Assembly (NCBI GenBank): GCA_963777505.1
Contig: CAVZQN010000008.1
Location: 64,001-128,000 of the forward strand
Origin: an uncultured bacterium
GTDB taxonomy: Bacteria; Acidobacteriota; HRBIN11; JAKEFK01
Direction of reading: 5' to 3'
Length of the DNA stretch: 64,000 nt
Positions 8,365 through 61,429 of this stretch are shown in pieces (the first letter of the stretch is position 1; the number at the start of each line of letters is the position of its first letter). Position numbers and translations under genes: made by a program. A model generated the notes under the pieces. The model was given only the letters and a program-made list of their open reading frames with translations, had not been told where the DNA came from and searched no databases.

Positions 8365-8865
8365 AGCACAACCGCCAAGACGCCAAGGACGTCAAGAAAA
8401 TAAAAATGCAAAATGATTGTAGGACATAAGGCAGGAATCAGAGGCTTGACTGATAGTTTGACTTCGATGGATAATTGGAGCAGCGATTGAGGTTCATCGA
8501 AATTTGGGTCCAGGTTTTTTGAATCATTTTACGAAAGCAGCCTTTTCATGAACTTAAATCGCCGTGGAATACCTTTTGAAAGATCAGGTATTGTTTCCCG
8601 TTTTGTATAAGGGTATTAAGATAGGGGAGAATCGGTTGGATCTGGTTATTGGCGAATTAATCATCGTCGAGCTTAAGTCGGTTGAAGCGCTAGTCCCTGT
8701 TTATATTGCTCAAGTAATTTCCTATTTAAGAGCGACAAAATACAAATTGGGTCTGTTAATCAACTTTAATGTCACAATCTTAAAATATGGCATCCGCTGG
8801 ATTATTTGTTCCGATTGAGATCTAAAAAGTAAATCTTGGCGCCTTGGCGTCTTGGCGGTTGAGCT
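8365..8865. mobile_element. Putative cassette: 8-nt-periodic inverted arms enclosing a GxxExxY gene
   Basis: Left arm agcacaaccgccaagacgccaagg (8365-8388) matches the reverse complement of 8842-8865 at 23/24 nt; repeat unit cgccaagR. Mobility is inferred, not shown. Confidence 0.55.
8446..8818 (+). pseudogene. GxxExxY family protein (PD-(D/E)XK-like), multiple frameshifts in 5' half; start approximate
   Basis: Reading across frames gives IIGAAIEVHRNLGPGF(L)ESFYE...RGIPF, then the intact YKGIKIGENRLDLVIGELIIVELKSVEAL...AQVISYLRATKYKLGLLINFN. Confidence 0.8.
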
Positions 8866-8889
8866 GTTATTTCGCTTTTGGAGGTATGG

Positions 8890-9877
8890 ATGAAGATTAC
8901 AGTCTTATTGATAGCATTTTTTTTTGTGGCAGTGGTTTGTTTTGCAGAGAGACCGGTGCATACGTATTCGATTGTCGGCTCGCGATCCAGAGACGGGACA
9001 GTTAGGAGTCGCCGTACAATCGCATTATTTTTCTGTGGGACAGAGAGTCCCCTGGGCAGAAGCAGGGATTGGTGCAGTTGCTACCCAATCCTTTACGGAA
9101 CTTACCTATGGTCCGTTGGGTTTGGAGTTGATGAAGGCTGGCAAAACAGCTCCCGTAGCATTGAAATCACTATTAGCAGCAGACCCTGGGATTGAAGTCA
9201 GGCAGGTCGCCATGATTGATGCTAAAGGAAATGTTGCTGCTCATACTGGCAAACAATGCATTCCGGATGCAGGTCATCAAATGGGCAAAAATTATTCTGT
9301 TCAAGCAAACTTAATGGCAAATCCGACGGTTTGGCCGGCAATGTCGGAAGCATTTGAAAAAGCCAAAGGTTCTCTAGCTGAAAAGATGTTGATCGCTCTG
9401 GAAGCCGCACAAGCGGCTGGTGGAGATATCCGTGGTGAACAATCTGCAGCAATCTTAGTCGTTGGCGCTGAAAAGACTGGTGTTTGGTGGAAGGATCGAA
9501 TCATTGATTTGCGAGTTGAAGATCATCCTCATCCATTAAAGGAATTGCGTCGTCTTCTGACAATTCAACAAGCTTATTACCATGAAGATCGGGGTGATGA
9601 GTACATTGCGGAAAAAAATCTTGAAGCTGCTTTTAGTGAATATGAAAAAGCTGCGAAATTGGCACCGGATAATGACGAATTAAAATTCTGGTATGCGTTG
9701 AGCATTTATACTGCAGGTGAAGAGAAAAGGGCGATGGAGTTGTTTCGAAACATATTCGCCAGAGACCGGCGTTGGTTGGACTTAATCGATCGACTGCCAG
9801 CAGCTGGCCTTCTTCTCAAGAATCAGCGCAGAAAATTAAAATTTTATTCCTGGAGAAATAGAGTTCTTGGCGGTTGA
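8890..9877 (+). CDS. DUF1028 family Ntn-hydrolase-like protein with C-terminal TPR (+1 frameshift near 8977)
   Basis: Signal peptide and HTYSIV join ARDPETGQLGVAVQSHYFSVG; AAGGDIRGEQSAA; DLRVEDHPHP. The extreme C-terminus may also be shifted. Confidence 0.8.
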
Positions 9878-9879
9878 GT

Positions 9880-10152
9880 TCACTGATTGTCTACGCTATC
9901 CATTACTTTTTCTTCTTCTTCCTGGCGGGCATGTTCTTCGCTACGAACTTCTTTAATGTCTTTTAATGCGTCAAACCCACGCTGCGGAGCCGAATTATTT
10001 TCACTGACACCGATTTCCTGAGATTCGGCAGGTTGTCTATCCTTTTGATGCTTTTGGAGTTCGTGTTCCGCTTCCATCTTGTCAAGTCTGCTCTCTCTTT
10101 TACAACCAACGACTAGCAGGGCGAGAACGGCTAAAACCAAAAGCTTACGCAT
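9880..10152 (-). CDS. Small lipoprotein, unknown function
   Basis: MRKLLVLAVLALLVVG|C lipobox. Confidence 0.65.
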   Translation of the reverse strand: MRKLLVLAVLALLVVGCKRESRLDKMEAEHELQKHQKDRQPAESQEIGVSENNSAPQRGFDALKDIKEVRSEEHARQEEEEKVMDSVDNQ

Positions 10153-10184
10153 GAGGAGATTCTACTCGAAATGGCGGAGGATTG

Positions 10185-10219
10185 AAAAAGCACGGTGCAA
10201 GGCTAAACCTTGCACCGTG
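10185..10219 (-). terminator. Intrinsic terminator after the DUF4331 gene
   Basis: Perfect 12-bp stem cacggtgcaagg/ccttgcaccgtg with a T-run on the minus strand. Confidence 0.7.
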
Positions 10220-10225
10220 AAAAGA

Positions 10226-11587
10226 TCACTGTTGTCTCTTGTTGTGCTTCGTATTCAACGGAGACTGTGGGATTCCGAGGTAAGGAAAAGAACTTGTAAA
10301 GGCCACATCATTTTGATCCACGCCATCGCCGAGGAGATTATTCGGCGCAACATTGAATCCATCGACGAGAACTCCTGCAACAACTCGCAACGAAATGTCG
10401 ACTGTGTCATCAGCAAGTCTTCGTCCGTTTGGATAACCTGCAAGGTCTCCCGCGATGACTCCAAGACGGTTTGGATTCTGTGTCGGTGGGATTGCCATAT
10501 TTAAGCGGATCATCTCGCCGGGAGTTACATTTGCCGGCTGATTCAACCCTGATACACCTGTTAGAAATACCGCAACAAGATCATTGCGCGGAGCAGGTGG
10601 AACTGAGATGCCATAGATTGCATTGATTGCACCAGGCAACGAAGGTGTTGTGACGTAATTGAGAAATTGCGTATCATTTTTGAGCTTGGATGAATTCCAT
10701 TTGTCTTTATCTTTTAATGGAATCACGAGTTCATTCACCAACGGCATACCGAGTCTGGATACCTGCACGCGTGGTCCGCTGTACTTTGGACCTCTCGGAC
10801 CCTGAACAGCATTTTTCGGCAAGTAGGATGTTGAATACACACCGATGATGGCATTAGGAGAATTTGGATTCGCTGGCACTCCACCATCGCTTGTAAGACG
10901 CGAGATTGGAACCTGCACAGCAATTGAATAAATGTTAAAGCCAGCAAGTGTGTCCACTCCACCACCAGCATTTCCAGGAACTTTGCGGATGGTTAACGCA
11001 TCAAATATCGCACCTAGATCAATGTAAAAAGGATCGTCGGCCGGACCCGCATAGGCTCTGATGTCGCCTGCCGTGATCACACTGCTGCTGATAGTATTTG
11101 CATAGCTCGGTGTTGTCTTTGGACCTACATTGGGAATTGGCACAGGAAGGTTGCTGCCCAACACTGTCGCTCTACCGTTCCGAACCTCTGTGAGTGTGTA
11201 TGTTTGTTGAAGTCCAGTACTGCCAGGTAGAAACGATATGAAGTTGTCCGGCGCCGCGATTGCTGTGTTGAACTGAAACCTGTAAATGATGTCATCTTGT
11301 GTATCGCCATCATTAATAATGTTGATTTCGTAAATTCCATCATCATCAAAGCGATAGAAATTAGGTCCCGCTGCTGGTTCAGCTAAAGGTACATAATTCG
11401 CAATTAGAGTAACTGTATTCGGATTATCTGGACTGACAAATGCATACACATCAGTACAGTCCATTCTTGGCATTCTACCGATGCCGGGTGCTTCGCTATG
11501 GCTGGATGCGAACAGATTTCCAACAAAAATAGCTAAAATGGCTGTTAAAGTCAGGATTTTCCTTAGGTTCGAGGGGATGCTGATCAT
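10226..11587 (-). CDS. DUF4331 family secreted protein
   Basis: Signal peptide, ASSHSEAP, DVYAFVSP, DDPFYIDLG, VSRLGMPLVNE and YPNGRRLADD. Confidence 0.85.
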   Translation of the reverse strand: MISIPSNLRKILTLTAILAIFVGNLFASSHSEAPGIGRMPRMDCTDVYAFVSPDNPNTVTLIANYVPLAEPAAGPNFYRFDDDGIYEINIINDGDTQDDIIYRFQFNTAIAAPDNFISFLPGSTGLQQTYTLTEVRNGRATVLGSNLPVPIPNVGPKTTPSYANTISSSVITAGDIRAYAGPADDPFYIDLGAIFDALTIRKVPGNAGGGVDTLAGFNIYSIAVQVPISRLTSDGGVPANPNSPNAIIGVYSTSYLPKNAVQGPRGPKYSGPRVQVSRLGMPLVNELVIPLKDKDKWNSSKLKNDTQFLNYVTTPSLPGAINAIYGISVPPAPRNDLVAVFLTGVSGLNQPANVTPGEMIRLNMAIPPTQNPNRLGVIAGDLAGYPNGRRLADDTVDISLRVVAGVLVDGFNVAPNNLLGDGVDQNDVAFTSSFPYLGIPQSPLNTKHNKRQQ

Positions 11588-11728
11588 GGTGACCTCCTTA
11601 AATTGTTGATCCGTTTTGATTCTGTATTTGCTGTCCTAGACTCTTACGAAGCAGAAGTTCGGTTTGGATTGGCCTGCCTTAGAAGTTCGCGAATTGCCTT
11701 CGAGAGAGCCGGGGATATAATTTCGTGC

Positions 11729-12292
11729 GTGAAGGGTACAACCAGCCCCAAACTGCAGGATGCACAAACGGATGCAGAGCTAATCGAAGACTGTCTTAAA
11801 GGAAATCAAAATGCATGGGAAACGCTCATCCGAAGATATCAAAATTTAATTTATTCTGTTCCTATTCGATACCATTTCTCGGCTCATGATTCGGCCGACG
11901 TTTTCCAGCATGTTTGCGTAACATTGCTCGAAAAGCTGAAGACTCTGAGGAATAGTCATACTCTCTCCTCCTGGCTTTACATTACAACAAAGCGCCATTG
12001 TTGGAAGATCGCAAAAAAACAGAAGATGGAAACTGAATTCATTGAAGACAATGAATTTTCGAACGAACCAGGAAGTGAAAGTCTTGTGCTTCAACACCAG
12101 GTTAAATCTGGCGTAGATCAGCTTTCAGAAAAATGCCGGGAACTCATTTCGGCGCTTTATTATTTGGACCCTCCACTCTCATATGATGAAATTACTGAAA
12201 AACTTGGAATTCCTTTTGGAAGCATTGGTCCGACACGAGCTAGATGCCTTGAAAAATTGAAAAAGATCCTAAGTGTAAAGATTTCAAATTGA
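11729..12292 (+). CDS. ECF sigma factor
   Basis: DAELIEDC...AWETLIRRYQNLIYS, DVFQ, LSYDEI...GSIGPTRARCLEKL. Confidence 0.88.
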   Translation: MKGTTSPKLQDAQTDAELIEDCLKGNQNAWETLIRRYQNLIYSVPIRYHFSAHDSADVFQHVCVTLLEKLKTLRNSHTLSSWLYITTKRHCWKIAKKQKMETEFIEDNEFSNEPGSESLVLQHQVKSGVDQLSEKCRELISALYYLDPPLSYDEITEKLGIPFGSIGPTRARCLEKLKKILSVKISN

Positions 12293-12357
12293 TGTATTTT
12301 TTTCGGGTTGGAGCATTCTTTATTAGAGGAAGGAGATACAGGTAGGTAGGTAGACTC

Positions 12358-12930
12358 ATGAAATGTCCGGAATTTATGAAGATTCTTGACCTCGTCGACA
12401 ACAGACTCGGCAAGGTTGAAACCCAAAAGATAAAGGGTCATATCAGCACCTGCGCCAAATGTACCGATCAGGCAGAATGGGCGCGCAAGACATTGTCATC
12501 CATGAAGAGTTCCGGCCTTGTGGATGCTCCAGAATATGCAATCCAGAAAGCGATCTCCATTTTCCCCAAAGAAAAAGTGAAACTTGCCGAATGGGTAATC
12601 GCAAAGCTGAATTTTGACAGTTGGATGTCTCCTCAAACAGCCGGAGTTCGCTCAGAAGATGCTGGACCACGCCAACGGATTTATCAAACTGAATCGTACA
12701 AAATTATCCTAATGAATGAGCCTGGAAGGTGGATCGGACAAGTTGTTTCCGAAAAACCGGGTGTAGAAGCTGCAGGATGTCTCGTTGAGTTGAGTTCAGG
12801 CAAAAAACATCTTGGATCAACAATCACGAATCAAAATGGTGAATTCATGTTTTCATCGAATCGCAATAACGACCTTCAGCTCAAAATTCATGGCCAGGCC
12901 GAAACCGTTGTAATTGGCAATTTGAACTAA
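12358..12930 (+). CDS. Putative zinc-finger (HxxxCxxC) anti-sigma factor
   Basis: GHISTCAKC near the N-terminus, directly downstream of the ECF gene; C-terminal TITNQNGEF beta-sandwich. Confidence 0.65.
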
Positions 12931-13000
12931 CTCTTCAAACGGGTTTGGTATCAATCCTCGCACTCTCCTTATACAATCAAATGAACCAAGGAGGCTAACC

Positions 13001-13432
13001 ATGCTCAAAGAATTTAAAGAATTCGCAATGCGAGGAAATGTATTGGATCTGGCAGTCGGCCTTATTATTGGAGCCGCTTTTGGAAAAATTGTTACGTCCT
13101 TTGTTAATGATATTTTAATGCCGCCCATAGGTATGCTTTTGGGACGCGTAAGTTTCAAAGATCTCTTTCTTAATCTATCAGGACAGAATTATCCATCACT
13201 TGAAGCCGCGAAAGCTGCAGGTGCTCCGACGATCAACTATGGAATGTTTATTCAAAACATTCTGGATTTTGTGATTGTCGCATTTGCTATTTTCTTGATA
13301 ATTAAACAAGTCAACAGCCTCAAGAGGCCTGCGGCTGCACCTGAAACGAAAGAGTGTCAATATTGTGCTTCGACCATTCCTAAAAAAGCTGTACGCTGTC
13401 CATCCTGTACATCAGAATTAAAAGCAGCTTGA
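13001..13432 (+). CDS. mscL: Large-conductance mechanosensitive channel with C-terminal CxxC-CxxC
   Basis: [44 protein letters not shown]. Confidence 0.95.
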
Positions 13433-13476
13433 AAAGATAATTCTTACATTTATTATTTGTTGATCAAACATAATCT

Positions 13477-13532
13477 GGAGGGCAGGCGGCCCTGCCTGCC
13501 AAACCTTAGGCGAGCAGTGACGCTCGCCCTCC
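13477..13532. repeat. REP-like inverted doublet
   Basis: GGAG-ggcaggc(ggccct)gcctgcc ... ggcgagc(agtgac)gctcgcc-CTCC. Confidence 0.65.
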
Positions 13533-13548
13533 GATAGGTAAGAAAAGT

Positions 13549-15387
13549 GTGAAACAAAATAAATTAATTCCAAGAGAAGTTATTTTCGGAAATCCTGAAA
13601 AGGCCTTTCCTTTGGTCGCTCCGGATGGCCGGCGGATGAGTTACCTCGCCCCTGTCAATAATGTTTTAAACGTATGGGTAGGAACAGTTGGAGGAAATGA
13701 TTTTCGGCCTATCACAAAAGATACCGACCGCGGGATTACACGTTATTTTTGGAGTGAAGATAAAAAGCACATCCTGTATTTGCAGGATGCCGGAGGTAAT
13801 GAGAACTGGCGGCTTTACAGTGTGGAGATCGAAACTGGAAATACCAGGGACCTAACTCCGTTTGAAAATGTGCAAACTCAAATTCTGGATCACAACAAGA
13901 ACTATCCAAATGAGCTTCTGTTAGCAATGAATCGCGATAACCCTGAATTGCACGATGTATATCATCTGAATCTTATCGATGGCGATCTGAGAATGCTTGA
14001 AAAAAATCCCGGAAATGTAATCGCGTGGGTCTCAGATGCCGAAATGAAAGTAAGAGGTGCAATGGCGGCCACACCCGAAGGTGGATTCGATATGCTTGTT
14101 CGAAAAAAAGCAGGCGCCGAGTGGGAAAAAATTATTGAATGGAATGCAGATGACAATATGAACAGCTCCCCTGTTGCATTTACACGAACAGGAAATTCAC
14201 TGTATCTTGCGGATTCTCGAAATGCCAACGCGGCCCGTCTTGTAAAACTGAACCTGGACTCAGGCGAATTACAGGTACTCGTTGATGATCCTGAATACGA
14301 CGCCGGTGAATTCATCGTGAATCCAGATAGTTATGAAGTTCAAGCAGCGTGTCTGACAAAAGATCGTGACGAATGGGTGATACTCGATGAAACGATTCGC
14401 GAAGATTTCGAAATCATTCAAAAACTAAATCGCGGAGATTTCTTTTTGTTGAATCGTGATAGCGCTGATAATACATGGCTTGTGGGATTCACTGTTGATG
14501 ATGGACCAGTTCCATATTTTTCGTACGATCGAAAAACAAAAACCGCAAAATACTTATTTACGAACAGGCCTGAATTAGAAGAATATCAACTCGCACAAAT
14601 GGAGCCGGTTACCTTTCAATCGAGTGATGGTCTCGCGATACATGGATATCTTACGTTGCCGCCAGATGTTGAAAAAAAGAACCTTCCGATGATTCTTAAT
14701 GTTCATGGCGGACCATGGCATCGTGATACCTGGGGCTACAATCCAGAAGCACAGTGGATGGCGAACCGTGGGTATGCATGTTTGCAAATTAATTTTCGAG
14801 GCTCCACTGGTTATGGAAAAAAATTCGTCAATGCAGGAGATCGTGAATGGGGCGGAAAAATGCATCAGGATCTTGTAGATGGCGTTCAATGGGCGATCAA
14901 TTCCGGAATTGCTGATCCTGAGCGGATCGCGATCTACGGTGGTTCCTATGGCGGATATGCCTCATTAGTCGGTGCCACATTTACACCAGATCTTTTCAGA
15001 TGCGCAGTTTCCATCGTTGGTCCAAGCAATCTCATTTCATTTATTAAAAGCATTCCACCTTATTGGTCTTCATTTCTCGCTGTATTGCATAAACGATTAG
15101 GCCATCCTGTAAATGAAATCGACTTTCTTATTTCACGTTCGCCTTTGTATAAAGTGGATCGAATAAGAATTCCAATGTTGATTGCTCAAGGCGCAAATGA
15201 TCCGCGTGTAAAACAAGCTGAATCTGAACAGATTGTGGATGCAATGCGAAGCCGCGGAGTCCCTCATGAATATTTGTTGTTTCCTGATGAAGGACATGGC
15301 TTCGTCAAGCCCGGAAACCGGTTGAAGTTTTATGCAGCAGCAGAAAAGTTCTTATCAACTCACCTTGGCGGACAATTCGAGGAATGA
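13549..15387 (+). CDS. S9 family peptidase
   Basis: VHGGPW, GGSYGG, QGANDPRV and FPDEGHG catalytic motifs. Confidence 0.92.
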   Translation: MKQNKLIPREVIFGNPEKAFPLVAPDGRRMSYLAPVNNVLNVWVGTVGGNDFRPITKDTDRGITRYFWSEDKKHILYLQDAGGNENWRLYSVEIETGNTRDLTPFENVQTQILDHNKNYPNELLLAMNRDNPELHDVYHLNLIDGDLRMLEKNPGNVIAWVSDAEMKVRGAMAATPEGGFDMLVRKKAGAEWEKIIEWNADDNMNSSPVAFTRTGNSLYLADSRNANAARLVKLNLDSGELQVLVDDPEYDAGEFIVNPDSYEVQAACLTKDRDEWVILDETIREDFEIIQKLNRGDFFLLNRDSADNTWLVGFTVDDGPVPYFSYDRKTKTAKYLFTNRPELEEYQLAQMEPVTFQSSDGLAIHGYLTLPPDVEKKNLPMILNVHGGPWHRDTWGYNPEAQWMANRGYACLQINFRGSTGYGKKFVNAGDREWGGKMHQDLVDGVQWAINSGIADPERIAIYGGSYGGYASLVGATFTPDLFRCAVSIVGPSNLISFIKSIPPYWSSFLAVLHKRLGHPVNEIDFLISRSPLYKVDRIRIPMLIAQGANDPRVKQAESEQIVDAMRSRGVPHEYLLFPDEGHGFVKPGNRLKFYAAAEKFLSTHLGGQFEE

Positions 15388-15393
15388 CATTAG

Positions 15394-15485
15394 ATTTTTC
15401 AACACAAAGACACAACGACTCGAAGAACACGAAATATTTATTTTTTTGTGAATATCGTGCCTTAGTGTCTTAGTGTTGAAAAAAT
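15394..15485. repeat. Empty 8-nt-periodic inverted repeat between convergent genes
   Basis: ttcaacacaaagacacaacgactcgaag ... atcgtgccttagtgtcttagtgttgaa. Confidence 0.7.
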
Positions 15486-16512: not shown

Positions 16513-16564
16513 AATTCTCGCTATTGTAACGCAATTGTTCGTCTGCAAGCGTTATGAATACTGC

Positions 16565-16589
16565 GGGCGGGTCTTAGACCCGGCCCTAT
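16565..16589. repeat. Single REP-like palindrome
   Basis: gggcgggtc-tta-gacccggccc-tat. Confidence 0.45.
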
Positions 16590-18696: not shown

Positions 18697-18771
18697 TTCA
18701 ACACGAAGACACCAAGACACAAGGATTTTTTTATTTAGTGCATCTTCGTGTCGTTGTGTCTTCGTGTTGAA
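18697..18771. repeat. Empty 8-nt-periodic inverted repeat between convergent genes
   Basis: ttcaacacgaagacac / gtgtcttcgtgttgaa form a perfect 16-bp outer stem; units acacNaag. Confidence 0.75.
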
Positions 18772-20369: not shown

Positions 20370-20411
20370 CGAACCGCAAAGTCGCAAATTCTTTGCGTCT
20401 TTGTGGTTCGT
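20369..20411. repeat. Empty 8-nt-periodic hairpin at the mraZ stop
   Basis: acgaaccgcaaagtcgcaaa-ttc-tttgcgtctttgtggttcgt. Confidence 0.7.
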
Positions 20412-21515: not shown

Positions 21516-21570
21516 GGAGCGCGGGCGTCATTGCCCGCCAATGTTAGGCGGGCACCGAGGCCTGCCCTCC
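21516..21570. repeat. REP-like inverted doublet
   Basis: GGAG-c-gcgggc(gtcatt)gcccgc ... ggcgggc(accgag)gcctgcc-CTCC. Confidence 0.65.
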
Positions 21571-21580
21571 CAAATTTTGT

Positions 21581-24031: not shown

Positions 24032-25507
24032 ATGAATCTAAAAACCCTACTTTCTGTACTGCAGAAGTACGAGATCTCAGAAGTTTCAGATCTCGATATT
24101 ACAGGCTTTGCTTACGATTCGCGTAAGGTAAAGCCGGGGAATCTTTTTGCGGCACTTCCCGGACTCCAGCATCATGGAAGCGAGTTTCAAGCTCAAGCCG
24201 AAAAAAATGGCGCAATTGCCATCTTAAGTGATCGTCTACTAAAATCTTCCCTTCCCATCATTACAGTAGAAAATCCACGTGCTGCGCTTGCTGCGCTTAG
24301 CAATGCTTTTTATCAATATCCTTCAACAAAGTTAAAACTATTCGGAGTTACAGGAACCAACGGCAAAACAACTACAACTTATCTACTCCAATCCATCCTT
24401 GAAGCGGCTGGATTGCGGACCGGTTTACTTGGAACTGTTGTTTACAGCGGAAAAGAGTTTCGCTCTGATGCAAAGTTAACGACTCCTGAATCTCTTGATC
24501 TTCAGGAAATGCTTGCAAAAATGGTTGCAGAAAAAGATGCGGCATGCGTGATGGAAGTTTCATCACATTCACTTGTAATGTCACGTGTTGCAAGCTGTGC
24601 GTTTGAAGCGGCAATATTCACCAACTTGACTCAAGATCATCTGGATTTTCACAAGACAATGGAAGACTACTTCGAGGCCAAAAAAATTCTATTCGATGGC
24701 CATACTTGCGCAGCAAAAAGTGCATTCATTAATAAAGATGATCCTTATGGCAAACGGATTCTGGCTGATCGCAAAGTTTCCGGACTCGATAGCTTTAGTT
24801 ACGGATTCAGCCCTGGATCATCATTCCGGATTCGCGATTGGAAAAGCACAGCACAAGAAAGCAATATGGTGATCCGTTACGAAAACAGAGATATCAAAAT
24901 CAAAACACCTCTTCTGGCTCGCTACAATGCATACAATCTCTGCGGTGCTTTTGCTGCTGCAACAATTGCTGGAATCGATCGGACCGCAATCTTGCAAGGC
25001 ATCGAAAACATGAAGCAAATACCGGGCCGTCTCGAAAAGATTGATCATGGTCAGCCATTCTTAGTTTTTATCGATTATGCACATACAGAAGACGCCCTCC
25101 GTCAAGTTTTGAGCACACTACGACCGTACACACGCGAGCGATTAATCGTTTTATTCGGATGTGGTGGAGAACGGGATAAAGGTAAGCGCCCTATGATGGG
25201 ACGAGCAGCCGGAGAACTCGCTGATGAAGTAATTTTGACTTCCGATAATCCAAGAAGCGAAAACCCGGCCACTATATTGCAGCAAATTAAAACGGGTGTC
25301 GAGAAAAGTGGAAATTCGAATCTGCATATTATTCCGGATCGAAAAGAAGCAATTGAGTTTGCTTTAAAACTCGCTGCACCTACAGATACGTTACTTCTTG
25401 CTGGAAAAGGGCATGAAACGTATCAGGTAATCGGAAAAGAAAAACAGCATTTTGATGAAAGAGAGATCCTGAAAGATGAATTAGGAAAGATGAAAGCTGA
25501 AAGTTAA
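24032..25507 (+). CDS. murE: UDP-MurNAc-tripeptide synthetase
   Basis: GVTGTNGKTT, MEVSSH, DYAHT, DNPR and AGKGHE. Confidence 0.95.
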   Translation: MNLKTLLSVLQKYEISEVSDLDITGFAYDSRKVKPGNLFAALPGLQHHGSEFQAQAEKNGAIAILSDRLLKSSLPIITVENPRAALAALSNAFYQYPSTKLKLFGVTGTNGKTTTTYLLQSILEAAGLRTGLLGTVVYSGKEFRSDAKLTTPESLDLQEMLAKMVAEKDAACVMEVSSHSLVMSRVASCAFEAAIFTNLTQDHLDFHKTMEDYFEAKKILFDGHTCAAKSAFINKDDPYGKRILADRKVSGLDSFSYGFSPGSSFRIRDWKSTAQESNMVIRYENRDIKIKTPLLARYNAYNLCGAFAAATIAGIDRTAILQGIENMKQIPGRLEKIDHGQPFLVFIDYAHTEDALRQVLSTLRPYTRERLIVLFGCGGERDKGKRPMMGRAAGELADEVILTSDNPRSENPATILQQIKTGVEKSGNSNLHIIPDRKEAIEFALKLAAPTDTLLLAGKGHETYQVIGKEKQHFDEREILKDELGKMKAES

Positions 25508-25545
25508 CTCACTTTCATCGTTCATCTTTCATCGTTCACCTTTCA
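25470..25545. repeat. Empty 7-nt-periodic inverted repeat spanning the murE stop
   Basis: 35-nt arms (29/35 complementary) built from tgaaaga/tgaacga units; the 6-nt loop contains the murE TAA. Confidence 0.8.
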
Positions 25546-30437: not shown

Positions 30438-30513
30438 GTAGGGGCGGGTCACGTGCCCGCCCACGGAGTTGGAATCAGAATTAATGATCGCCGTGCACTA
30501 GGGCCGCTCCTCC
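30438..30513. repeat. REP-like element (one intact, one degenerate half)
   Basis: GTAG-gggcggg(tcacgtg)cccgccc ... gggccgctcCTCC. Confidence 0.55.
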
Positions 30514-35921: not shown

Positions 35922-35959
35922 AACCACGGAGACACAAAGAACTCTGTGACTCTGTGGTT
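35922..35959. repeat. Empty 8-nt-periodic hairpin between ftsA and ftsZ
   Basis: aaccacggagacacaaag-aa-ctctgtgactctgtggtt. Confidence 0.7.
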
Positions 35960-37187: not shown

Positions 37188-37231
37188 AACCGCGGAGTCG
37201 CAGAGTTTCCGAACTTAGCGTCTCTGCGGTT
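37188..37231. repeat. Empty 8-nt-periodic hairpin after ftsZ
   Basis: aaccgcggagtcgcagag-tttccgaa-cttagcgtctctgcggtt. Confidence 0.7.
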
Positions 37232-43784: not shown

Positions 43785-43824
43785 GCTCCCCTGCTCCTCC
43801 GCTCCCCTGCTCCTCCGCCCCTGC
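43785..43824. repeat. 8-nt periodic tandem repeat (single arm)
   Basis: gctcccct gctcctcc gctcccct gctcctcc gcccctgc. Confidence 0.7.
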
Positions 43825-45309: not shown

Positions 45310-45310
45310 G

Positions 45311-45336
45311 TGTGATCTTTGCGCCTTTGTGGTGAA
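45311..45336 (-). repeat. Single 8-nt-periodic arm between nuoN and iscU
   Basis: Minus strand reads ttcaccacaaaggcgcaaagatcaca. Confidence 0.55.
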
Positions 45337-54590: not shown

Positions 54591-54619
54591 TTGATCTTCG
54601 CTTTTTCTTCGCCTATGAT
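54591..54619 (+). promoter_or_regulatory. dnaE2 promoter with overlapping SOS-box-like direct repeat
   Basis: TTGATC-17 nt-TATGAT; CTTC-N7-CTTC at 54596-54610. Confidence 0.6.
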
Positions 54620-54667
54620 GTCAGTCGGAGGAACCGGCGAGGTAGAGTCTTTTTTCTACAGCCCCGT

Positions 54668-57600
54668 GTGGAAGAGTTGTATACGCATCTTCATATACAC
54701 AGCGCATTTTCTTTGCTTGAAGGGGCATTCAGCATCCCACAATTGTTGTTTCGCGCCCAGGAAATGCAAATGCCTGTGGTTACTCTTACAGATACAAACG
54801 GATTGTATGGTGCTATCACCTTTTATAAATTCGCAAAACAACTTGGGATCAAACCGATTATCGGTTGTTGTTTGAAATCGGAAGATGGCTCCGCAGTTTT
54901 AATCGCAAAAAATATATTAGGCTTCTGTCAGATTTCGCAGATTGTAACAGCCCGCCACCTGGTTGAAAAATTTTCGCTTCGCAAAGATCTCCAAAAACTC
55001 GCCTATACTTCCGATCCACAGATATTTGTAATTTCATCCGATGAAACTTTGCTTCAAGCTCTGGCGGCTAATTGTTGGGATTTATCTCACTTATTTGTTG
55101 AGCTTGTTCGGGCGAACGGTAAGGCTGAAGAAAAAAAACTCCGTAGATTGTGCGACCTTGCCAGTCACTTACGGATCGGCGTTGTGGCAACAAATGATGT
55201 TCATTTTTTGCATCCACCAGACCATTTACTTCATCGCATTCTGACTGCAGTTGGCAATTTATCTCACTGGATGGACTCTTCTCTACCCATCACAACGGAA
55301 GAATGCTGGCTTAAAACACCGGATCAAATGGAATCACTGTTTTCGGATTTGCCTGAAGCTCTGCAAAATACAGTTCTAATTGCAGAACAGTGTGATCTGA
55401 ATCTTGAACTCGGCAAATATACATTCCCTGAATTTCATCCACCCGATGGAAAACCTTCATCGGAATTTTTTGAAACGTTATGCCGCAATGGATTGCGTGC
55501 ACGTTACAACAAAATTCCAGCTGAAGCAGAAGATCGTTTGCGCCGTGAATTGGAAGTTGTTCGAAGACTTGGATTCGCAGAATATTTTCTGGTTGTCTGG
55601 GACATTTTGCGATATGCGCGTGAGCAAAATATCCATTGGGTCGGACGCGGCTCCGCAGCAAACAGCATTGTTTCCTATGCGCTTGGAATTACAAATGTAG
55701 ATCCGGTTCGATACAACCTGTTTTTCGAACGTTTCTTAAATCCTGAACGTAAATCTCCGCCTGATATTGATGTGGACTTCGGCTGGAAAGAACGCGATCA
55801 AATCCTGGCTTACGTTTATGAACGTTATGGGCATGATCGCGTCGCGATGATCTGTACATATGTTACGTTCAGCGCTCGCCTTGCGGTGCGTGAAATCGGT
55901 AAAGCGATGGGGTTACCTGATGAGGAAATTACAGCAGTATCTTCCAGGCTTCCTTATGGCGCCGACGCAAAAGCGTTGCTTCAAGATCCTTCGCAATTTC
56001 CAGAAGCCCGCGATTTGCCATTGGATCAAGAACCATTTCGGCAAATTCTCCGGCTTGCCGCACACATCGATGGATTTCCGCGGCATCTTTCAATTCATGC
56101 GGGAGGTATTGTTATTGCGCCTTATCCAATTACTCAAATGGTTCCGCTTCAACGGGCAGCCAAAGGATTAGTGGTCACTCAATATGACATGTACGGAGTG
56201 GAAGATATCGGATTGGTGAAAATTGATTTGCTGGCACAACGGTCACTGTCAGTGTTCGATGATGTAATAAAAATTCTGAAATCCAGAAATGGTTCTTCAG
56301 GTGCCTTAATTCAGAACCTTTACGATTATGACTTTCTGGAAAACGATTGCAGAGTCAAAGAATTAGTGCGGACCGGAAACACAATTGGTTGTTTCTACAT
56401 CGAATCACCTGCAATGAGACAGCTTTTGCAAAAATTGCGAGTTGATAATTTCGAAGATCTGACTGCGGCAAGTTCGGTGATCCGCCCTGGAGTCGCAGAA
56501 AGCGGAATGATGCAGCAATACATCCGCAGAAAAACTGGAGAAGAGCCTGTCTCATATCTTCATCCGAAAATGGAATCACTGTTGAGCGAAACCTGCGGAG
56601 TCATGATCTACCAGGAAGATGTAATTCGAGTCGCTCATGAGATTGCAGGAATGAGTCTGGGTGAAGCTGATTTATTAAGACGGGCAATGAGTGGGAAAGA
56701 ACGTTCACCGATAAAAATGGATGAGATGGAACGTCAGTTTTTGGAAAAAGCAACTGCGAAAAAAGTTGATCCTGATATTGCAAAAGAAATCTGGCGGCAA
56801 ATTTCGAGCTTCGCAGCCTATGCATTTTGCAAAGCTCATAGCGCATCGTTTGCACAACTTTCGCTTCAGGTCACATATTTACGCGCATATTATCCAGCCG
56901 ATTTCATGGCAGCCGTACTTACAAATCAAGGCGGCTTCTATACAACGATGTCTTATATCGAAGAATCACGACGCATGGGATTGCGAATTCTTCCTCCTGA
57001 CGTGCAAAAAGGTGAATTCTTTTACACAGCTGAAGGACCGCATGCGATTCGGGTTGGACTCATGCAAGTAAAAGATGTAGCAGCGAAACACTGGGAAGCA
57101 TTTCATGAAGAACGCGCAAAGGAACAATTCGAAAACTTTACAGATTTTCTGCTGCGTACACAATTTAATGAAGCCGAGCTGGAAAATCTAATTAAGTGCG
57201 GCGCATGCGATTCGTTTGCATTGAACAGGCCGCAAATGTTGTGGGTCCTGAAGGCCACATTTTCTTCCATCGTTCAACAGCGAAATCGTTCAAGTCTTAT
57301 CGGAGCTTCAATCATTCGTACTCCGAATGCGCCAAGATTGCGGGACTATACTGACGATCAAAAACTCAGGTGGGAGCTTCAATTGCTCGATGTGGGCGTA
57401 ACAAAACATCCATTACATTTGTTTAAACCATGGAAGCAAGTACGGAATTTTGTACCAGCAAAACATTTGAAAGATTATAAAGATGAATATGTTCAGCTGA
57501 TCGGATGGCTTGTCACAACAAAACCATCCAGCACACGCAAGAATGAACGGATGCTATTTGCAACGTTTGAAGATACTGAAACTTTATTCGAAACCACTCT

Positions 57601-57721
57601 GTTCCCACGCACCTACAACAAATGCGCCCACCTGTTGGTAAACAGAGGACCGTATCTGGTACAAGGAAATGTGAATGAAGACCACGGCGTATTCAGCCTG
57701 AATGTTGAGGAGTACGACTGA
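54668..57721 (+). CDS. dnaE2: Error-prone DNA polymerase III alpha, DnaE2-type
   Basis: PHP domain, GRGSAANS, PDIDVDF, FPRHLSIHAGG, FCKAHSASFA and an OB fold; 1017 aa with no tau-binding tail. Confidence 0.85.
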   Translation: MEELYTHLHIHSAFSLLEGAFSIPQLLFRAQEMQMPVVTLTDTNGLYGAITFYKFAKQLGIKPIIGCCLKSEDGSAVLIAKNILGFCQISQIVTARHLVEKFSLRKDLQKLAYTSDPQIFVISSDETLLQALAANCWDLSHLFVELVRANGKAEEKKLRRLCDLASHLRIGVVATNDVHFLHPPDHLLHRILTAVGNLSHWMDSSLPITTEECWLKTPDQMESLFSDLPEALQNTVLIAEQCDLNLELGKYTFPEFHPPDGKPSSEFFETLCRNGLRARYNKIPAEAEDRLRRELEVVRRLGFAEYFLVVWDILRYAREQNIHWVGRGSAANSIVSYALGITNVDPVRYNLFFERFLNPERKSPPDIDVDFGWKERDQILAYVYERYGHDRVAMICTYVTFSARLAVREIGKAMGLPDEEITAVSSRLPYGADAKALLQDPSQFPEARDLPLDQEPFRQILRLAAHIDGFPRHLSIHAGGIVIAPYPITQMVPLQRAAKGLVVTQYDMYGVEDIGLVKIDLLAQRSLSVFDDVIKILKSRNGSSGALIQNLYDYDFLENDCRVKELVRTGNTIGCFYIESPAMRQLLQKLRVDNFEDLTAASSVIRPGVAESGMMQQYIRRKTGEEPVSYLHPKMESLLSETCGVMIYQEDVIRVAHEIAGMSLGEADLLRRAMSGKERSPIKMDEMERQFLEKATAKKVDPDIAKEIWRQISSFAAYAFCKAHSASFAQLSLQVTYLRAYYPADFMAAVLTNQGGFYTTMSYIEESRRMGLRILPPDVQKGEFFYTAEGPHAIRVGLMQVKDVAAKHWEAFHEERAKEQFENFTDFLLRTQFNEAELENLIKCGACDSFALNRPQMLWVLKATFSSIVQQRNRSSLIGASIIRTPNAPRLRDYTDDQKLRWELQLLDVGVTKHPLHLFKPWKQVRNFVPAKHLKDYKDEYVQLIGWLVTTKPSSTRKNERMLFATFEDTETLFETTLFPRTYNKCAHLLVNRGPYLVQGNVNEDHGVFSLNVEEYD

Positions 57722-58185
57722 ATCTGAACGATCAAAGAGGAAACAGAAAGTGAAATCAAAAGCTCACAGAACGAAGGATTAGATCTTAGAAAAAGAACAA
57801 AGGATTTTGCGTTAAGAATCATCCGCCTATACAAAGCACTTCCCAAGACAAATGAAGCTCGAATTTTGGGCTATCAGGTGCTCAGAAGCGGAACTTCCAT
57901 TGGCGCCAACTTTCGAGAAGGGGTTCGAGCGCGTTCCTCAGCAGAATTTGTGAGCAAGATGGAAACTGCATTGCAGGAGTTGGAAGAAACAATGTATTGG
58001 TTAGAGTTATTGCAAGAAATTGGTGCTATTCAAGCATATCGATTGGAAAAACTCATAAAAGAAGCAGATGAACTAACAGCTATTCTTGTAACTTCCGTAA
58101 AAACAGTAAAACGCCGCCACTTGAACGTCAAATAGATCTGTCTTCAAAAGATCCTTTCCTCTTTCATCGTTCATCTTTCATCGTT
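57713..58185. mobile_element. Putative cassette: 7-nt-periodic inverted arms enclosing a four-helix-bundle gene
   Basis: 57725-57743 tgaacgatcaaagaggaaa matches the reverse complement of 58155-58173 at 18/19 nt. Mobility is inferred, not shown. Confidence 0.55.
57731..58135 (+). CDS. Four-helix-bundle protein (23S rRNA IVP/TIGR02436-like); start codon uncertain
   Basis: Frame is open from 57728: DLRKRTKDFALRIIRLYKALP...QVLRSGTSIGANFREG..ARS.AEF.SKM..ALQELEET.YWLELL...EADELTAIL. Confidence 0.88.
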   Translation: MKEETESEIKSSQNEGLDLRKRTKDFALRIIRLYKALPKTNEARILGYQVLRSGTSIGANFREGVRARSSAEFVSKMETALQELEETMYWLELLQEIGAIQAYRLEKLIKEADELTAILVTSVKTVKRRHLNVK

Positions 58186-58189
58186 AAAC

Positions 58190-58218
58190 AAAAAAGCCCT
58201 GGAATGAACCAGGGCTTT
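58190..58218 (-). terminator. Intrinsic terminator of the microprotein transcript
   Basis: Minus strand reads aaagccctgg-ttcatt-ccagggcTTTTTT. Confidence 0.8.
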
Positions 58219-58290
58219 AAAAGTTTCCCAGCATCTCCATGAGCCACAGGCTAAATAAGGAGGAACCGGCAGCTCAAAAGGAGTAAATAT

Positions 58291-58350
58291 CTATTTCTTC
58301 TTTGCCGGTGATTTTTTCTTGGCTGCCTTTTTTCCTTTCTTTTTTGCCAT
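58291..58350 (-). CDS. 19-aa Lys-rich microprotein MAKKKGKKAAKKKSPAKKK
   Basis: AAGGAGGAAATGA-ATG RBS, open to TAG, with its own downstream terminator; too short for the ORF track. Confidence 0.7.
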   Translation of the reverse strand: MAKKKGKKAAKKKSPAKKK

Positions 58351-58431
58351 TCATTTCCTCCTTTGGCTTTTCCCTGATCCACAAAAGATCGGGAAAGTTA
58401 AAATTAGTTACACTATATATAGTATAAAAGG

Positions 58432-59175
58432 GTGACTCAGGTCAATACTGTGAATGAAGAAAAATATTCGGTTGATAGTATTTGGGATCCAACGATCAAA
58501 ATTCAGCAATCGCGAAAAGGGTATCGTTTCGCGATTGATTCAGTTTTGCTTGCGCATTTTCTTCGATTAAATTCTGATGAAGAAGCGTTAGAAATCGGTT
58601 GTGGAAACGGAATTATTCTTGTTCTGCTTTCGCATTTGCAGAAATATAAACGACTGATTGGTGTGGAAATTCAAAATGAATTAGCCGAGCTTGCCCGCTT
58701 GAATATAAAAAACAATCACGCGGAAAAAGTGGAAATTATCGAGGCTGATGCTCTTGAACTTTCAGAAAGACTTCAGAAGAATTCATTCCATCTACTTTAT
58801 TCAAACCCTCCCTATCGAAAAGTCGGAACAGGCAGACTCAATCCATCAACAGAAAAAGCCCTCGCGCGTCATGAAGTGCGATTCAAGCTAAAAGATCTAC
58901 TGAATCTTGCGGAAGAATTTCTAATCGATCGCGGCCGGCTTAGTGTAATTCTTCCTTCGTTTCGTGAAGAAGATTGGATGAAGTTACTGGGAGCGACTCA
59001 ATATTTCGTTCAAACCCGGCAATATGTATATTCATTTCCCAATGCTCCGCCTGCCTTTATTTTGCTAACTGTTGCCAAACACGAATCGACAATCGACGAA
59101 AAGCACCCACTAACAATCTATACACAACCTGGAAAATACACACACGAAATGGCTGCATTGCTCACAAAGCAGTAA
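58432..59175 (+). CDS. tRNA1(Val) adenine-N6 methyltransferase family
   Basis: GYRFAIDSVLLA, EIGCGNG, GVEIQ, SNPPY and ARHE. Confidence 0.85.
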   Translation: MTQVNTVNEEKYSVDSIWDPTIKIQQSRKGYRFAIDSVLLAHFLRLNSDEEALEIGCGNGIILVLLSHLQKYKRLIGVEIQNELAELARLNIKNNHAEKVEIIEADALELSERLQKNSFHLLYSNPPYRKVGTGRLNPSTEKALARHEVRFKLKDLLNLAEEFLIDRGRLSVILPSFREEDWMKLLGATQYFVQTRQYVYSFPNAPPAFILLTVAKHESTIDEKHPLTIYTQPGKYTHEMAALLTKQ

Positions 59176-59221
59176 CCGAGAGCTTTCAAACCAACCCCCT
59201 TCGTGGTATATAACATGGCTC

Positions 59222-60034
59222 ATGTTTCAGAGTCTACGAAATCTATATCGGTACCGGACACTCGTTCACAGTATGGTTGTCCGAGAACTAAAAGCGCGTT
59301 ATCGCGGATCAATACTCGGCTTCTTCTGGTCTTTCATCAATCCGCTTTTGCTTCTGATGGTTTATACAATTGTGTTCAATTACATTCTTCCAAACCGTGG
59401 AGTTGAACTTCAACCTTATGCCTTGTTTTTGTTTTGCGGATTATTGCCGTGGACATGGTTTTCATCTGCCTTGCTCGAAGCCTCTAATGTCATTATTGCA
59501 GGCGGAACTTTAATTAAGAAGATTATCTTTCCTGCAGAAGTCCTCCCATTTGTTTCCGTAATTGCAAACATGATCCACTTTCTTTTGGGAACACCGATTC
59601 TTTTTGCATTCATCTTGATCTATAAAGTCCCATTAAGCTGGAATGCACTTTTCTTTCCTTTAATTATTTTTATTCAACTGATACTCACGCTTGGATTTTC
59701 ACTTTGGATTTCATCCTTAAGCGTGCATTTTCGTGATTTGCGTGACATTCTAGCAAACTTACTAACGCTCTGGTTTTTTTGCACGCCAGTTATTTATCCT
59801 TTTAATCTCTCGTTGATTCAGGATTCCCAACATTTGATCGCGCGTATTTTTAAACACGTACTCTATTTGAACCCTGTTTCTTATTTAATGGATGCGTATC
59901 ATCAATCTCTTTTTCACGGACATTTACCTGATTTTCGTCGTCTGGGAATCGTTTTTTTGGTGAGTATTGCGGTCTTTCTCTCTGGCTATTTTGTTTTCGA
60001 TAGATTGCGTGACACCTTTGCTGAGGAAGTTTAA
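59222..60034 (+). CDS. wzm: Polysaccharide ABC transporter permease
   Basis: RELKARYRGSILGFFWSFINPL, FRD and TPVIYP. Confidence 0.88.
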   Translation: MFQSLRNLYRYRTLVHSMVVRELKARYRGSILGFFWSFINPLLLLMVYTIVFNYILPNRGVELQPYALFLFCGLLPWTWFSSALLEASNVIIAGGTLIKKIIFPAEVLPFVSVIANMIHFLLGTPILFAFILIYKVPLSWNALFFPLIIFIQLILTLGFSLWISSLSVHFRDLRDILANLLTLWFFCTPVIYPFNLSLIQDSQHLIARIFKHVLYLNPVSYLMDAYHQSLFHGHLPDFRRLGIVFLVSIAVFLSGYFVFDRLRDTFAEEV

Positions 60035-60037
60035 GAC

Positions 60038-61327
60038 ATGAATGCTGTTGAAGTTGAAAATGTCTCGAAGTTCTACAAGCGGTCCGCACACAAGAGACAA
60101 TTTCAAACGCTGAAAAGCGCAATGCTGGGTGGGAATTTATTTGAGACTCTTACTCCGAAGGAAGCATATGCAGCGCTGAAAAACGTCAATTGTTCGATTC
60201 CCAAAGGCTCGATGTTTGGGATCATTGGCAGCAACGGTTCTGGTAAAAGCACATTACTGAAACTAATTGCAGGAATTTCAAAACCAACATTCGGAAAGAT
60301 TACAAGCCATGGAAAAATTTCAGCATTAATCGAACTGGGTGCAGGATTCCATCCGGAAATCAGTGGCGGGGAAAACATCTTTATTAATGGAATTATGTTG
60401 GGACTTTCACGCAAATCGATCACGGAAAGATATGACGACATTGTGAAGTTTGCTGAGCTTGAAGAATTTATTGATCAGCCGGTAAAAACATATTCGTCCG
60501 GAATGTTCATGAGGTTAGGGTTCGCGGTCGCGGTGAATGTTGATCCCGATATTCTTCTGATCGATGAAGTACTCGCTGTTGGTGACGAAGCGTTTGCTCA
60601 CAAATGTTTGGACAAGATTCTGGATTTCAAAAAACGGAACAAAACAATGATTCTTGTCACTCATTCCATGGCAATGATTGAACTTCTGTGTGATTCGGCA
60701 ATGTGGCTGAAAAAAGGGGAAATGATGAAGATCGGGGACCCGCGAATGGTCTGCGGTGCTTACTTGATGGATGTTGAAGGAAAAGAGGAAAAGGATTTGC
60801 AGGCACAACATCAGCAGCTCACTGAAACACTGGCAGCCACAGTTCAAGATCAAGAGGATGGTGTTCGCGAATCACGATGGGGTGGAGGGGAAATTCAAAT
60901 TACAAAAGTGCAGTTATTAGATTCCCAGGATCAGGAAAAGCATGTATACGCTACGGGTGAACCGATGCAAATCAAGCTGTTCTTATCTGCGAAGACGGCG
61001 GTAGATGATTTCGTTTTCGGTATTGGAATTTTCAATGGCGAAGGTGTTTGCTGCTACGGAACTAATACTCACATTGAAGAATATGAACCGGTTGAATTGC
61101 GTGGTTCAGCCGAGGTCACTTTTCATATTGATCAGCTCAATTTAGTTGAAGGAACTTATTATTTAGACGTTGCGGCTCATCGCCGTGATGAATACCCTTA
61201 TGACTACCACCGTCATCTGTATACTTTCAAAGTACGATCCCGCCAAAAAGATGTTGGAGTTTTCCGGCCAAATCATAGCTGGCAATTCTCCCCCAACATC
61301 AAGTTCAAGACCCGTAATACTCAATAG
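60038..61327 (+). CDS. wzt: Polysaccharide ABC transporter ATPase with Wzt C-terminal domain
   Basis: GSNGSGKST, LGAGFHPE, YSSGM and IDEVLAVGD. Confidence 0.9.
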   Translation: MNAVEVENVSKFYKRSAHKRQFQTLKSAMLGGNLFETLTPKEAYAALKNVNCSIPKGSMFGIIGSNGSGKSTLLKLIAGISKPTFGKITSHGKISALIELGAGFHPEISGGENIFINGIMLGLSRKSITERYDDIVKFAELEEFIDQPVKTYSSGMFMRLGFAVAVNVDPDILLIDEVLAVGDEAFAHKCLDKILDFKKRNKTMILVTHSMAMIELLCDSAMWLKKGEMMKIGDPRMVCGAYLMDVEGKEEKDLQAQHQQLTETLAATVQDQEDGVRESRWGGGEIQITKVQLLDSQDQEKHVYATGEPMQIKLFLSAKTAVDDFVFGIGIFNGEGVCCYGTNTHIEEYEPVELRGSAEVTFHIDQLNLVEGTYYLDVAAHRRDEYPYDYHRHLYTFKVRSRQKDVGVFRPNHSWQFSPNIKFKTRNTQ

Positions 61328-61331
61328 CACC

Positions 61332-61429
61332 GGATGCTAGATGCTGGATGGTAAGCACGTGCCAAGGAACTAATCAAGACTCAAGAATGTGAATCGTGCC
61401 GAGCATCAAGCATCCAGCATGAAGCATCG
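61332..61429. repeat. Empty 7-nt-periodic inverted repeat (gatgct type)
   Basis: ggatgct agatgct ggatggt ... agcatca agcatcc agcatga agcatcg. Confidence 0.7.

Follow-up and report, generated by a model that had tools for sequence, protein, structure and literature searches.

The window analysed here is a 64,000-nt stretch of an acidobacterial genome (G000:C8:64001-128000; the host genome, G000, has 5.23 Mb in 14 contigs). It carries inverted arms built from rows of tandem 7-9-nt words, and two pairs of these arms each enclose one small gene, encoding a GxxExxY protein in one case and a four-helix-bundle (4HB) protein in the other. We interpret these elements with moderate confidence as hairpin-bounded selfish cassettes that act at the DNA level, together with their gene-less derivatives. 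The cassettes resemble both the REPIN-RAYT systems and the intervening sequences of 23S rRNA but are members of neither class. They look like a seemingly undescribed kind of element, the design of which occurs in many bacterial phyla.

Both filled cassettes lie on the forward strand. The left arm of the GxxExxY cassette (8357..8397) reads AACCGCAGAGCACA, then ACCGCCAAG ACGCCAAGG ACGTCAAG, with words of the CGCCAAG type, and its right arm (8834..8867) has three CTTGGCG words followed by GGTTGAGCTGT; the inverted repeat 8365-8388/8842-8865 is 96% complementary. The cargo (8465..8818) is a pseudogene matching PF13366 (E 3.0e-28), with one TGA and one TAA inside. The left arm of the 4HB cassette (57714..57743), composed of TGAAAGA/TGAACGA 7-mers, begins at the stop codon of a DnaE-type gene, and the right arm (58155..58184) reads TCTTTCA TCGTTCA TCTTTCA TCGT. 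These arms are 30 nt long, 80% complementary, and separated by 411 nt, and they hold an intact gene for a protein of 128 aa (57749..58135; PF05635, E 1.2e-24; TIGR02436, E 5.6e-30; PDB entry 2RLD, E 1.5e-22). Together with seven empty hairpins and two single arms, the window has 11 elements with such arms between 8357 and 61428. Shuffle controls excluded a chance origin: arms with two CRCNRAG cores numbered 12 in the window compared with a mean of 1.6 and a maximum of 6 in 200 dinucleotide shuffles, and strictly periodic inverted repeats numbered three compared with a mean of 0.05 in 40 shuffles. The periodic-arm elements, filled and empty, that an earlier note had described in this DNA were thus confirmed.

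The same architecture recurs in the rest of the host genome, where the elements have increased in copy number. Periodic inverted arms surround all three of its GxxExxY genes (one broken) and four of its five 4HB genes (one broken), in agreement with the earlier proposal that both cargo families are located in loops. Among 1898 tandem arrays with a period of 6-10, an inverted partner with at least 80% identity was found within 1.2 kb for 159; direct partners numbered only 73, and a distant control site gave 33. The pattern ACCRCRGAGNCRCRGAG had 84 matches in the genome and none in the reversed control, and a looser two-core pattern detected 692 GxxExxY-type arms (789 raw matches vs 148 in the reversed control). 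In neighbouring arm pairs the purine arm came first in 92 cases and second in 28. The genome is 90% coding, and of its 65 short-loop periodic hairpins 64 lie between genes, as counted with the crude gene caller used for all genome-wide intergenic and orientation counts; most of them start from 35 nt before to 36 nt after a stop codon. The hairpins were distributed over tandem, divergent, and convergent gene pairs (40, 13, and 11) much like the background (1462, 582, and 341), which gives no support to a role purely as terminators or 3' ends.

Gene-less copies share their arms with gene-carrying ones. The commonest word families that are not of the GxxExxY type, GCAGGGGA (27 arrays), AGATTTC (27), and AGAGGAT (25), are each found as the arms of a resident 4HB gene. 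The single C-rich arm at 43785..43822 in the window, which has GCTCCCCT GCTCCTCC twice and belongs to the GCAGGGGA family (Tandem Repeats Finder period 16/8, 100% matches), is made of words that also flank the 4HB gene at C3:560176. These observations support the earlier idea that filled and empty elements are members of one system. In addition, a 157-nt palindromic non-coding module occupies the same position inside a CACGGAG hairpin in six of six copies at six loci (G000:C1:96398-96555, C1:689990-690146, C2:18627-18785, C3:207400-207554, C4:194037-194192, and C6:356781-356939), always separating words 2 and 3 of one arm. The module has no Rfam match, and its own loop centre is variable. From the constancy of its position it follows that arm-bounded units multiply as units. 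The two bases between words 2 and 3 of the CACGGAG-family hairpins are purines in the 5' arm and pyrimidines in the 3' arm and are often non-complementary (AA opposite CC); this fixed mismatch is the insertion point of the 157-nt module. Inspection by eye of the spacer bases between words gave no consistent pattern of complementarity between arms.

The relation between arms and cargo was examined in a phylum sample of 151 genomes, from which 30 GxxExxY and 30 4HB loci were drawn, in a cross-phylum sample of 80 GxxExxY loci (79 readable) in named genomes that represent many phyla, and in an extra sample of 40 4HB genes from 10 of the named genomes (about nine lineages). The phylum tallies include two unpublished genomes, G035 and G058. 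At an arm score of at least 15, the threshold of the pooled period table, arms were present in 85 of 110 GxxExxY loci, with a period of 8 in 41, 9 in 30, and another value in 14 (4 once, 10 six times, and 11 seven times), and in 51 of 70 4HB loci, with a period of 7 in 39, 8 in nine, and 9 in three, and no other value. Shifted control intervals scored at most 11 for the 30 GxxExxY loci and at most 12 for the 29 scored 4HB loci, except for one at 24. Period 7 was thus found in none of the 85 GxxExxY and in 39 of the 51 4HB arm pairs (Fisher p = 8.5e-24, a value inflated by kinship because the loci are not independent). The link between period and cargo proposed in the earlier note therefore stands as a tendency. 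As a strict rule it was rejected, because nine of the 51 4HB arm pairs have period 8, including that of the host gene C3:560176 with its 8-mer GCAGGGGA arms.

The notion that the GxxExxY protein recognises its repeat by the period also had to be modified, since period alone is not the common feature of its arms and a conserved core sequence is. Arms were found in 64 of the 79 readable cross-phylum GxxExxY loci, 57 of these 64 arm pairs have two or more CRCNRAG cores, and the cores are spaced by 8 nt in 139 cases and by 9 nt in 52. In 44 of the 64 loci each arm has three units behind an outer ACC. The 4HB arms consist of words of nearly any sequence: in the extra sample, arms were found at 26 of the 40 genes, and the GxxExxY core in none of the 26.

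Gene and hairpin also co-occur among genomes. In the phylum sample, 31 of the 151 genomes have at least five ACCRCRGAGNCRCRGAG matches (hereafter hairpin-rich; neither of the unpublished genomes is among them), and a GxxExxY gene is present in 24 of these 31 compared with 31 of the 120 others (odds ratio 9.8). Overall, 55 of the 151 genomes carry a GxxExxY gene and 79 a 4HB gene. Elsewhere, the pattern gave 80 matches in a Nitrospirota genome and 27 in an Acidobacteriota genome.

The cargo genes match PF13366/TIGR04256 and PF05635/TIGR02436, and not PF01797, the Y1 transposase family. The structure model of the GxxExxY protein (pLDDT 92) displays a restriction-endonuclease-like fold with D...(D/E)xK catalytic residues, and E26, D66, E76, and K78 are invariant in 14 sequences. 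In a Foldseek search against the PDB nothing reached E <= 0.001, the best of the weak matches being Hjc resolvases and Cas4, and PADLOC gave weak Cas4 rows (E 0.003 and 0.007) for GxxExxY and no match for the 4HB protein. A sequence search of solved structures returned no GxxExxY match, and the ESM Atlas returned no usable match. A specific reading of GxxExxY as a Holliday junction resolvase is unsupported, since the wide structural search gave only a generic nuclease fold. The 4HB protein is related to the uncharacterised protein 2RLD and, according to the available text of PMC10053308, to the retroelement accessory protein Avd. GxxExxY proteins of other phyla are 53-66% identical to those of the host genome. 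As for plasmids as carriers, a relative was found in only 8 of 72,556 records, mostly very large replicons.

The empty hairpins of the window lie at gene junctions, and four of the seven are in or beside the dcw cluster. Of these four, the hairpin with CGCAAAG-type arms at 20370..20410 stands right behind a stop codon upstream of the cluster (RNA fold z -9.6), that with TGAAAGA-type 7-mer arms at 25470..25545 occupies the murE-murF junction (z -6.4), that with CACGGAG/CACAAAG words at 35922..35959 occupies the ftsA-ftsZ junction (z -6.0), and that with CGCGGAG/CGCAGAG words at 37188..37231 is located 3' of ftsZ (z -5.5). The presence of elements inside operons, as stated in the earlier note, is thereby supported; the identities of murE, murF, ftsA, ftsZ, and the DnaE-type polymerase were confirmed by Pfam. 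The left arm at murE-murF (25470-25507) encodes the last 12 residues of MurE, and the right arm of the ftsA-ftsZ hairpin contains the first possible start codon of the ftsZ open reading frame (ORF), at 35946. The other empty hairpins are one with ACACAAAG-type 8-mer arms at 15395..15483, between convergent peptidase S9 and CorA genes (40-nt arms, 75% complementary; z -5.5), one with ACACGAAG/ACACCAAG 8-mer arms at 18697..18771 (30-nt arms, 87% complementary; z -7.3), and one with GGATGCT-type 7-mer arms and a 60-nt loop at 61333..61428, 3' of a Wzt-type ABC gene (18-nt arms, 89% complementary; periodicity score 0.91). Six of the seven thus fold with z from -5.5 to -9.6, and the seventh, folded as 61328-61433, reaches only -2.6. 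A single right-type arm, CTTTGCG CCTTTGTG GTGAA, stands without a partner at 45317..45336. A second, unrelated type of repeat in the window consists of GC-rich palindromes resembling repetitive extragenic palindromes (REPs), GGGCGGG...CCCGCCC and GGGAGCGG...CCGCTCCC, at 8314-8349, ~13478-13535, 16563-16587, 21520-21575, and 30443-30465; they share junctions with the tandem-word hairpins.

Comparison of orthologous junctions, including the three named in the earlier note (murE-murF, ftsA-ftsZ, and the 3' end of the DnaE-type gene), showed that relatives differ. Four relatives (G001-G004) likewise have a GxxExxY cassette at the junction of the window's own, with other arm words: ACCACAGAG/TCGCAGA in G001, the 10-mers ACACAGATGA in G002 and G004, and CGCCAAG in G003. 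The GxxExxY proteins at this junction are only ~35-50% alike, and the window pseudogene is 50% identical to the intact G001 gene over 119 aa, stops included. At the junction of the 4HB cassette, G001 lacks the cassette, 142 nt replacing 476 nt ahead of the same terminator, and G002 has an unrelated 8-mer hairpin. The 7-mer hairpin at murE-murF in the host genome is replaced by a CACAAAG 8-mer hairpin in G001 and by a REP-type hairpin in G002, and the ftsA-ftsZ hairpin has a related counterpart in G001. The murF-mraY junction has a hairpin in G002 and none in G000 or G001; murD-ftsW has none in G000, a hairpin in G001, and a GC-rich palindrome without tandem words in G002; and ftsW-murG has a REP-type hairpin in G000, a hairpin in G001, and none in G002. 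Since these junctions are filled, empty, or occupied by a different hairpin in relatives, the elements turn over. In relatives ~93% identical to the host genome, the 4HB gene aligns and the arm regions (57709-57781 and 58149-58186) are unaligned or bear indels. The number of arm words varies between related strains, with indels at 58149-58161 and, in run X2, a loose end with four regular TCATCGT units.

A full element consists of two inverted arms of tandem words around one small gene. In the GxxExxY element, the gene encodes a PD-(D/E)XK-fold protein, and each arm has an outer (T)TNACC end followed by about three CRCNRAG cores at a spacing of 8-9 nt; in the 4HB element, the gene encodes a PF05635 protein, and the arms are usually 7-nt words of nearly any sequence. 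On the selfish-cassette interpretation, the GxxExxY nuclease would recognise its own repeated core on both arms and cut there, or cut the cognate empty site, and repair or rejoining would then copy or move the unit. We infer that the nuclease acts on its own arms because gene and motif are conserved together and co-occur and the active site is intact. The 4HB protein may be a nucleic-acid-binding helper that depends on host enzymes; its role is the weakest part of the account. The paired arms would make an insertion harmless inside operons and 23S rRNA because they would fold out of the transcript. A bolder version, which we regard as possible though doubtful, is that the GxxExxY elements form a new class of very small mobile elements, in which a nuclease of 120 aa acts on three phased CRCNRAG words per end to copy the enclosed DNA, and that the 4HB proteins, as relatives of Avd, serve a parallel system based on 7-nt words.

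Several observations weigh against the selfish-cassette interpretation. No locus was found at which one genome has a gene between the arms and another has the same arms without it, and there was no sign of cleavage, excision, a circle, or a target duplication. At the CACGGAG-family hairpins, no target duplication was evident; the inverted repeat continues into TTNAC/GTNAA, and the comparison had no close empty allele to define the ends. The relatives ~93% identical to the host genome, found in contigs of two of four public runs, all keep the 4HB cassette; in these contigs none joining across the cassette, and no empty allele, was seen. Empty copies within one family share near-identical arms around AT-rich loops of 20-26 nt that are unrelated in sequence, which simple copy-and-paste does not predict. 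The commonest GxxExxY-type words of the host genome, CGCAAAG (126 arms), CGCAGAG (118), and CACAAAG (82), have no resident gene, and no GxxExxY gene was detectable in 7 of the 31 hairpin-rich genomes (among them G062 with 54 matches, G010 with 36, and G082 with 33). In 5 of the 110 GxxExxY loci the gene lies between hairpins and not in a loop, and the 4HB protein lacks a catalytic fold. Furthermore, the conserved core may be valid for only one GxxExxY subfamily, because the cross-phylum sample comprises the 80 loci closest to the query profile.

Of the alternatives, the one that survives best, though we consider it unlikely, is that the elements act only at the RNA level, like the 23S rRNA intervening sequences: the stem would pair in the transcript, RNase III would cut it, and the cargo mRNA would be released. 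The empty hairpins would then be processing or stability signals, the elements would spread by ordinary recombination, and the cargo would be unrelated to the arms. PF05635 genes are indeed the known ORFs of 23S rRNA intervening sequences, and according to the available text of PMC4990558 the 28-bp terminal stem of the Coxiella element is cut by RNase III in vitro, a length matched by the arms here. The elements also stand inside operons, the hairpins fold strongly as RNA, and the cargo is co-oriented with its neighbours at 66 of 76 callable flanks for GxxExxY (220 examined) and 36 of 45 for 4HB (140 examined), so co-transcription with the host operon matters. An RNA stem, however, should tolerate G.U and purge A.C pairs, whereas the sense-strand stem mismatches showed no G.U excess for either GxxExxY (G.U 99 vs A.C 79, p = 0.15) or 4HB (43 vs 46, p = 0.83), and therefore give no support for an RNA-only stem. 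Moreover, the CRCNRAG core and outer ACC are kept with the gene across phyla, although pairing in double-stranded RNA does not require any particular sequence, and hairpins are not depleted between divergent genes (13 of 65).

It is rather improbable that the hairpins are host-serving REP-like repeats of structural or regulatory function, such as mRNA stabilisers or protein sites, with GxxExxY and 4HB proteins as domesticated binders or maintainers without ongoing mobility. The large number of hairpins (692 motif arms in the host genome), their start at or near stop codons, the persistence of a hairpin at ftsA-ftsZ in G000 and G001, and a junction at which five genomes from the family (G000-G004) all have a GxxExxY cassette would fit such a function. 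In contrast, orthologous junctions often lack the element or have an unrelated one, the host genome has two broken genes among its eight cargo genes, and the patchy carriage of the GxxExxY gene (55 of 151 genomes) and the 4HB gene (79 of 151) likewise argues against it; the 53-66% cross-phylum identity of the GxxExxY cargo points to horizontal transfer rather than a host function.

We regard as very improbable the explanation that the hairpins are variant REP sequences moved by the Y1 (RAYT) transposases of the genome, with the small genes as passengers. Two RAYT-type Y1 genes flanked by inverted repeats exist in the host genome (C4:954082-954855, 96.2 bits on NF047646, for which the cut-off is 80, and C4:1855994-1856728, 67.5 bits), and Y1 genes are found in 26 of the 31 hairpin-rich genomes vs 67 of the 120 others. 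The repeats beside them are nevertheless of another type or word family than the arms of the small genes: the RAYT at C4:954029-954880 is flanked by GC-rich REP palindromes similar to those in the window, and that at C4:1855938-1856623 by 42-nt palindromes with tandem 7-mers (CCCGCTT), a word family not seen around small genes. In addition, a search with PF01797 (E <= 1e-5) found nothing in five of the 31 hairpin-rich genomes: G001 (45 ACCRCRGAGNCRCRGAG matches, 96% complete, 8 contigs), G004 (105), G007 (48), G010 (36), and G025 (8). These assemblies are 93-100% complete, so that absence of the gene is not proven, but the five genomes are evidence against a RAYT as the mover. The absence of a transposase from the window, also noted earlier, applies to the 18 ORFs covered by the Pfam check.

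Equally far-fetched is an integron-like arrangement, in which a site-specific recombinase from another locus would use the hairpins as folded recombination sites and the genes would be the intervening cassettes. The five GxxExxY loci with the gene between hairpins, the clustering of cassettes (three within 16 kb on C3, and runs of two or three in other genomes), and the inside-out hairpins of G027, G044, and G072 fit this arrangement. Most genes are, however, inside one hairpin and not beside it, the elements are scattered singly at housekeeping junctions without a single array, and no recombinase was seen beside them, although no search for a recombinase or integrase was made. Finally, local replication slippage plus chance, with no system behind it, can produce short tandem words and would agree with the varying number of arm words between related strains, but is hardly credible given the shuffle controls, the 84 matches vs 0 for the reversed pattern, and the recurrence of the same words at dozens of loci and in other phyla.

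In the cluster G000:C3:560176-576617, one 4HB and two GxxExxY cassettes stand within 16 kb, the two GxxExxY cassettes on either side of a single ORF of 510 codons. Runs of two or three cassettes at 2-4 kb spacing were seen in G135:C7, G102:C223, G044:C17, G112:C26, and G096:C55. Inside-out hairpins, with the pyrimidine arm first and the ACC/GGT ends toward the loop, look like two abutted element ends. They are present at L212 (G027:C6:157000-157400), L213, L214, and L215, are common in G027, G044, and G072, and are rare in the host genome (6 pairs with loops of at most 60 nt vs ~69 in the usual order). At G000:C4:1768730-1769230 (L201:310-528, minus strand), AGATTTC-type 7-mer arms surround an ORF of 72 aa without a Pfam, NCBIfam, or PADLOC match, which could be the remnant of a gene or a third cargo type.

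Among known systems, REPIN-RAYT populations consist of REP doublets with a REP-associated Y1 (HUH) tyrosine transposase located between inverted repeats, and they depend on the resident RAYT. The elements described here share with them one small gene between inverted repeat copies, many gene-less inverted doublets or hairpins of the same repeat dispersed in intergenic DNA, and a tendency of each repeat family toward its own resident gene. They differ in their cargo, which has a PD-(D/E)XK fold or is a four-helix bundle instead of a Y1/HUH enzyme and is 53-66% identical across phyla, in their arms, which are rows of tandem words, and in apparently not depending on a resident RAYT, as the 5 of 31 hairpin-rich genomes without a Y1 match indicate. 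A resemblance to miniature inverted-repeat transposable elements is that the terminal inverted repeats of the short non-coding units are also the ends of a gene-carrying form; here, no recognised transposase and no target-site duplication was seen, and the loops of empty copies are mutually unrelated. Free-standing PD-(D/E)XK homing endonucleases are likewise very small nuclease-fold genes that spread horizontally to precise intergenic sites, but here there is no intron or intein context, and the repeated-word arms have no counterpart among them.

The 23S rRNA intervening sequences of Coxiella and Leptospira carry an ORF of the same family (S23p, PF05635). In Coxiella, as far as the available text of PMC4990558 describes it, the element is 428 nt long with the ORF in the loop of a ~28-bp terminal stem, compared with ~470 nt and 30-nt arms of 80% complementarity in the 4HB cassette. 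The latter, however, is located between the DnaE-type gene and a methyltransferase gene and not in rRNA, its arms are tandem 7-mers, and the design is shared by a second cargo family unrelated to the first; a scan of the window and of four loci bearing the 157-nt module gave no Rfam family at gathering score. Dispersed heptamer repeats, such as TAACTGA and GGGAATC, have been described in cyanobacteria, Beggiatoaceae, Bacteroidetes, and Xanthomonas (PMC4679880, PMC4692102, in their available parts) and are similarly intergenic, organised as tandem 7-nt words in many families per genome, and patchy across phyla. Those repeats are mainly direct (169 direct sets and one inverted in a Beggiatoa genome), and the available part of PMC4679880 draws no link to 4HB or GxxExxY genes, with '23S', 'helix bundle', and 'nuclease' at 0 occurrences. 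A literature search outside subscription journals and supplements found no description of a design with repeated-word arms around GxxExxY or 4HB genes.

GxxExxY (PF13366) and 4HB (PF05635) are very large families of small proteins without known function. In the parts of the sources available, PF13366 was listed as 'unknown, multiple transfers' in a 2012 survey (PMC3424549), and PF05635 was known only as the rRNA intervening-sequence ORF and Avd relative (PMC10053308). Both families now gain a concrete genomic context, each with a conserved DNA partner and, for GxxExxY, with a defined core motif. At the same time, the analysis links otherwise unexplained intergenic short tandem repeats with parent elements that carry a gene, and shows that such elements invade and re-invade essential operons, dcw among them. 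If the bolder version of the interpretation is true, it would explain why tandem repeats of 7-9 nt are, as has long been noted, in excess between bacterial genes, how the ORF-bearing 23S rRNA intervening sequences arose, and what two of the largest small-protein families still without a known function do.

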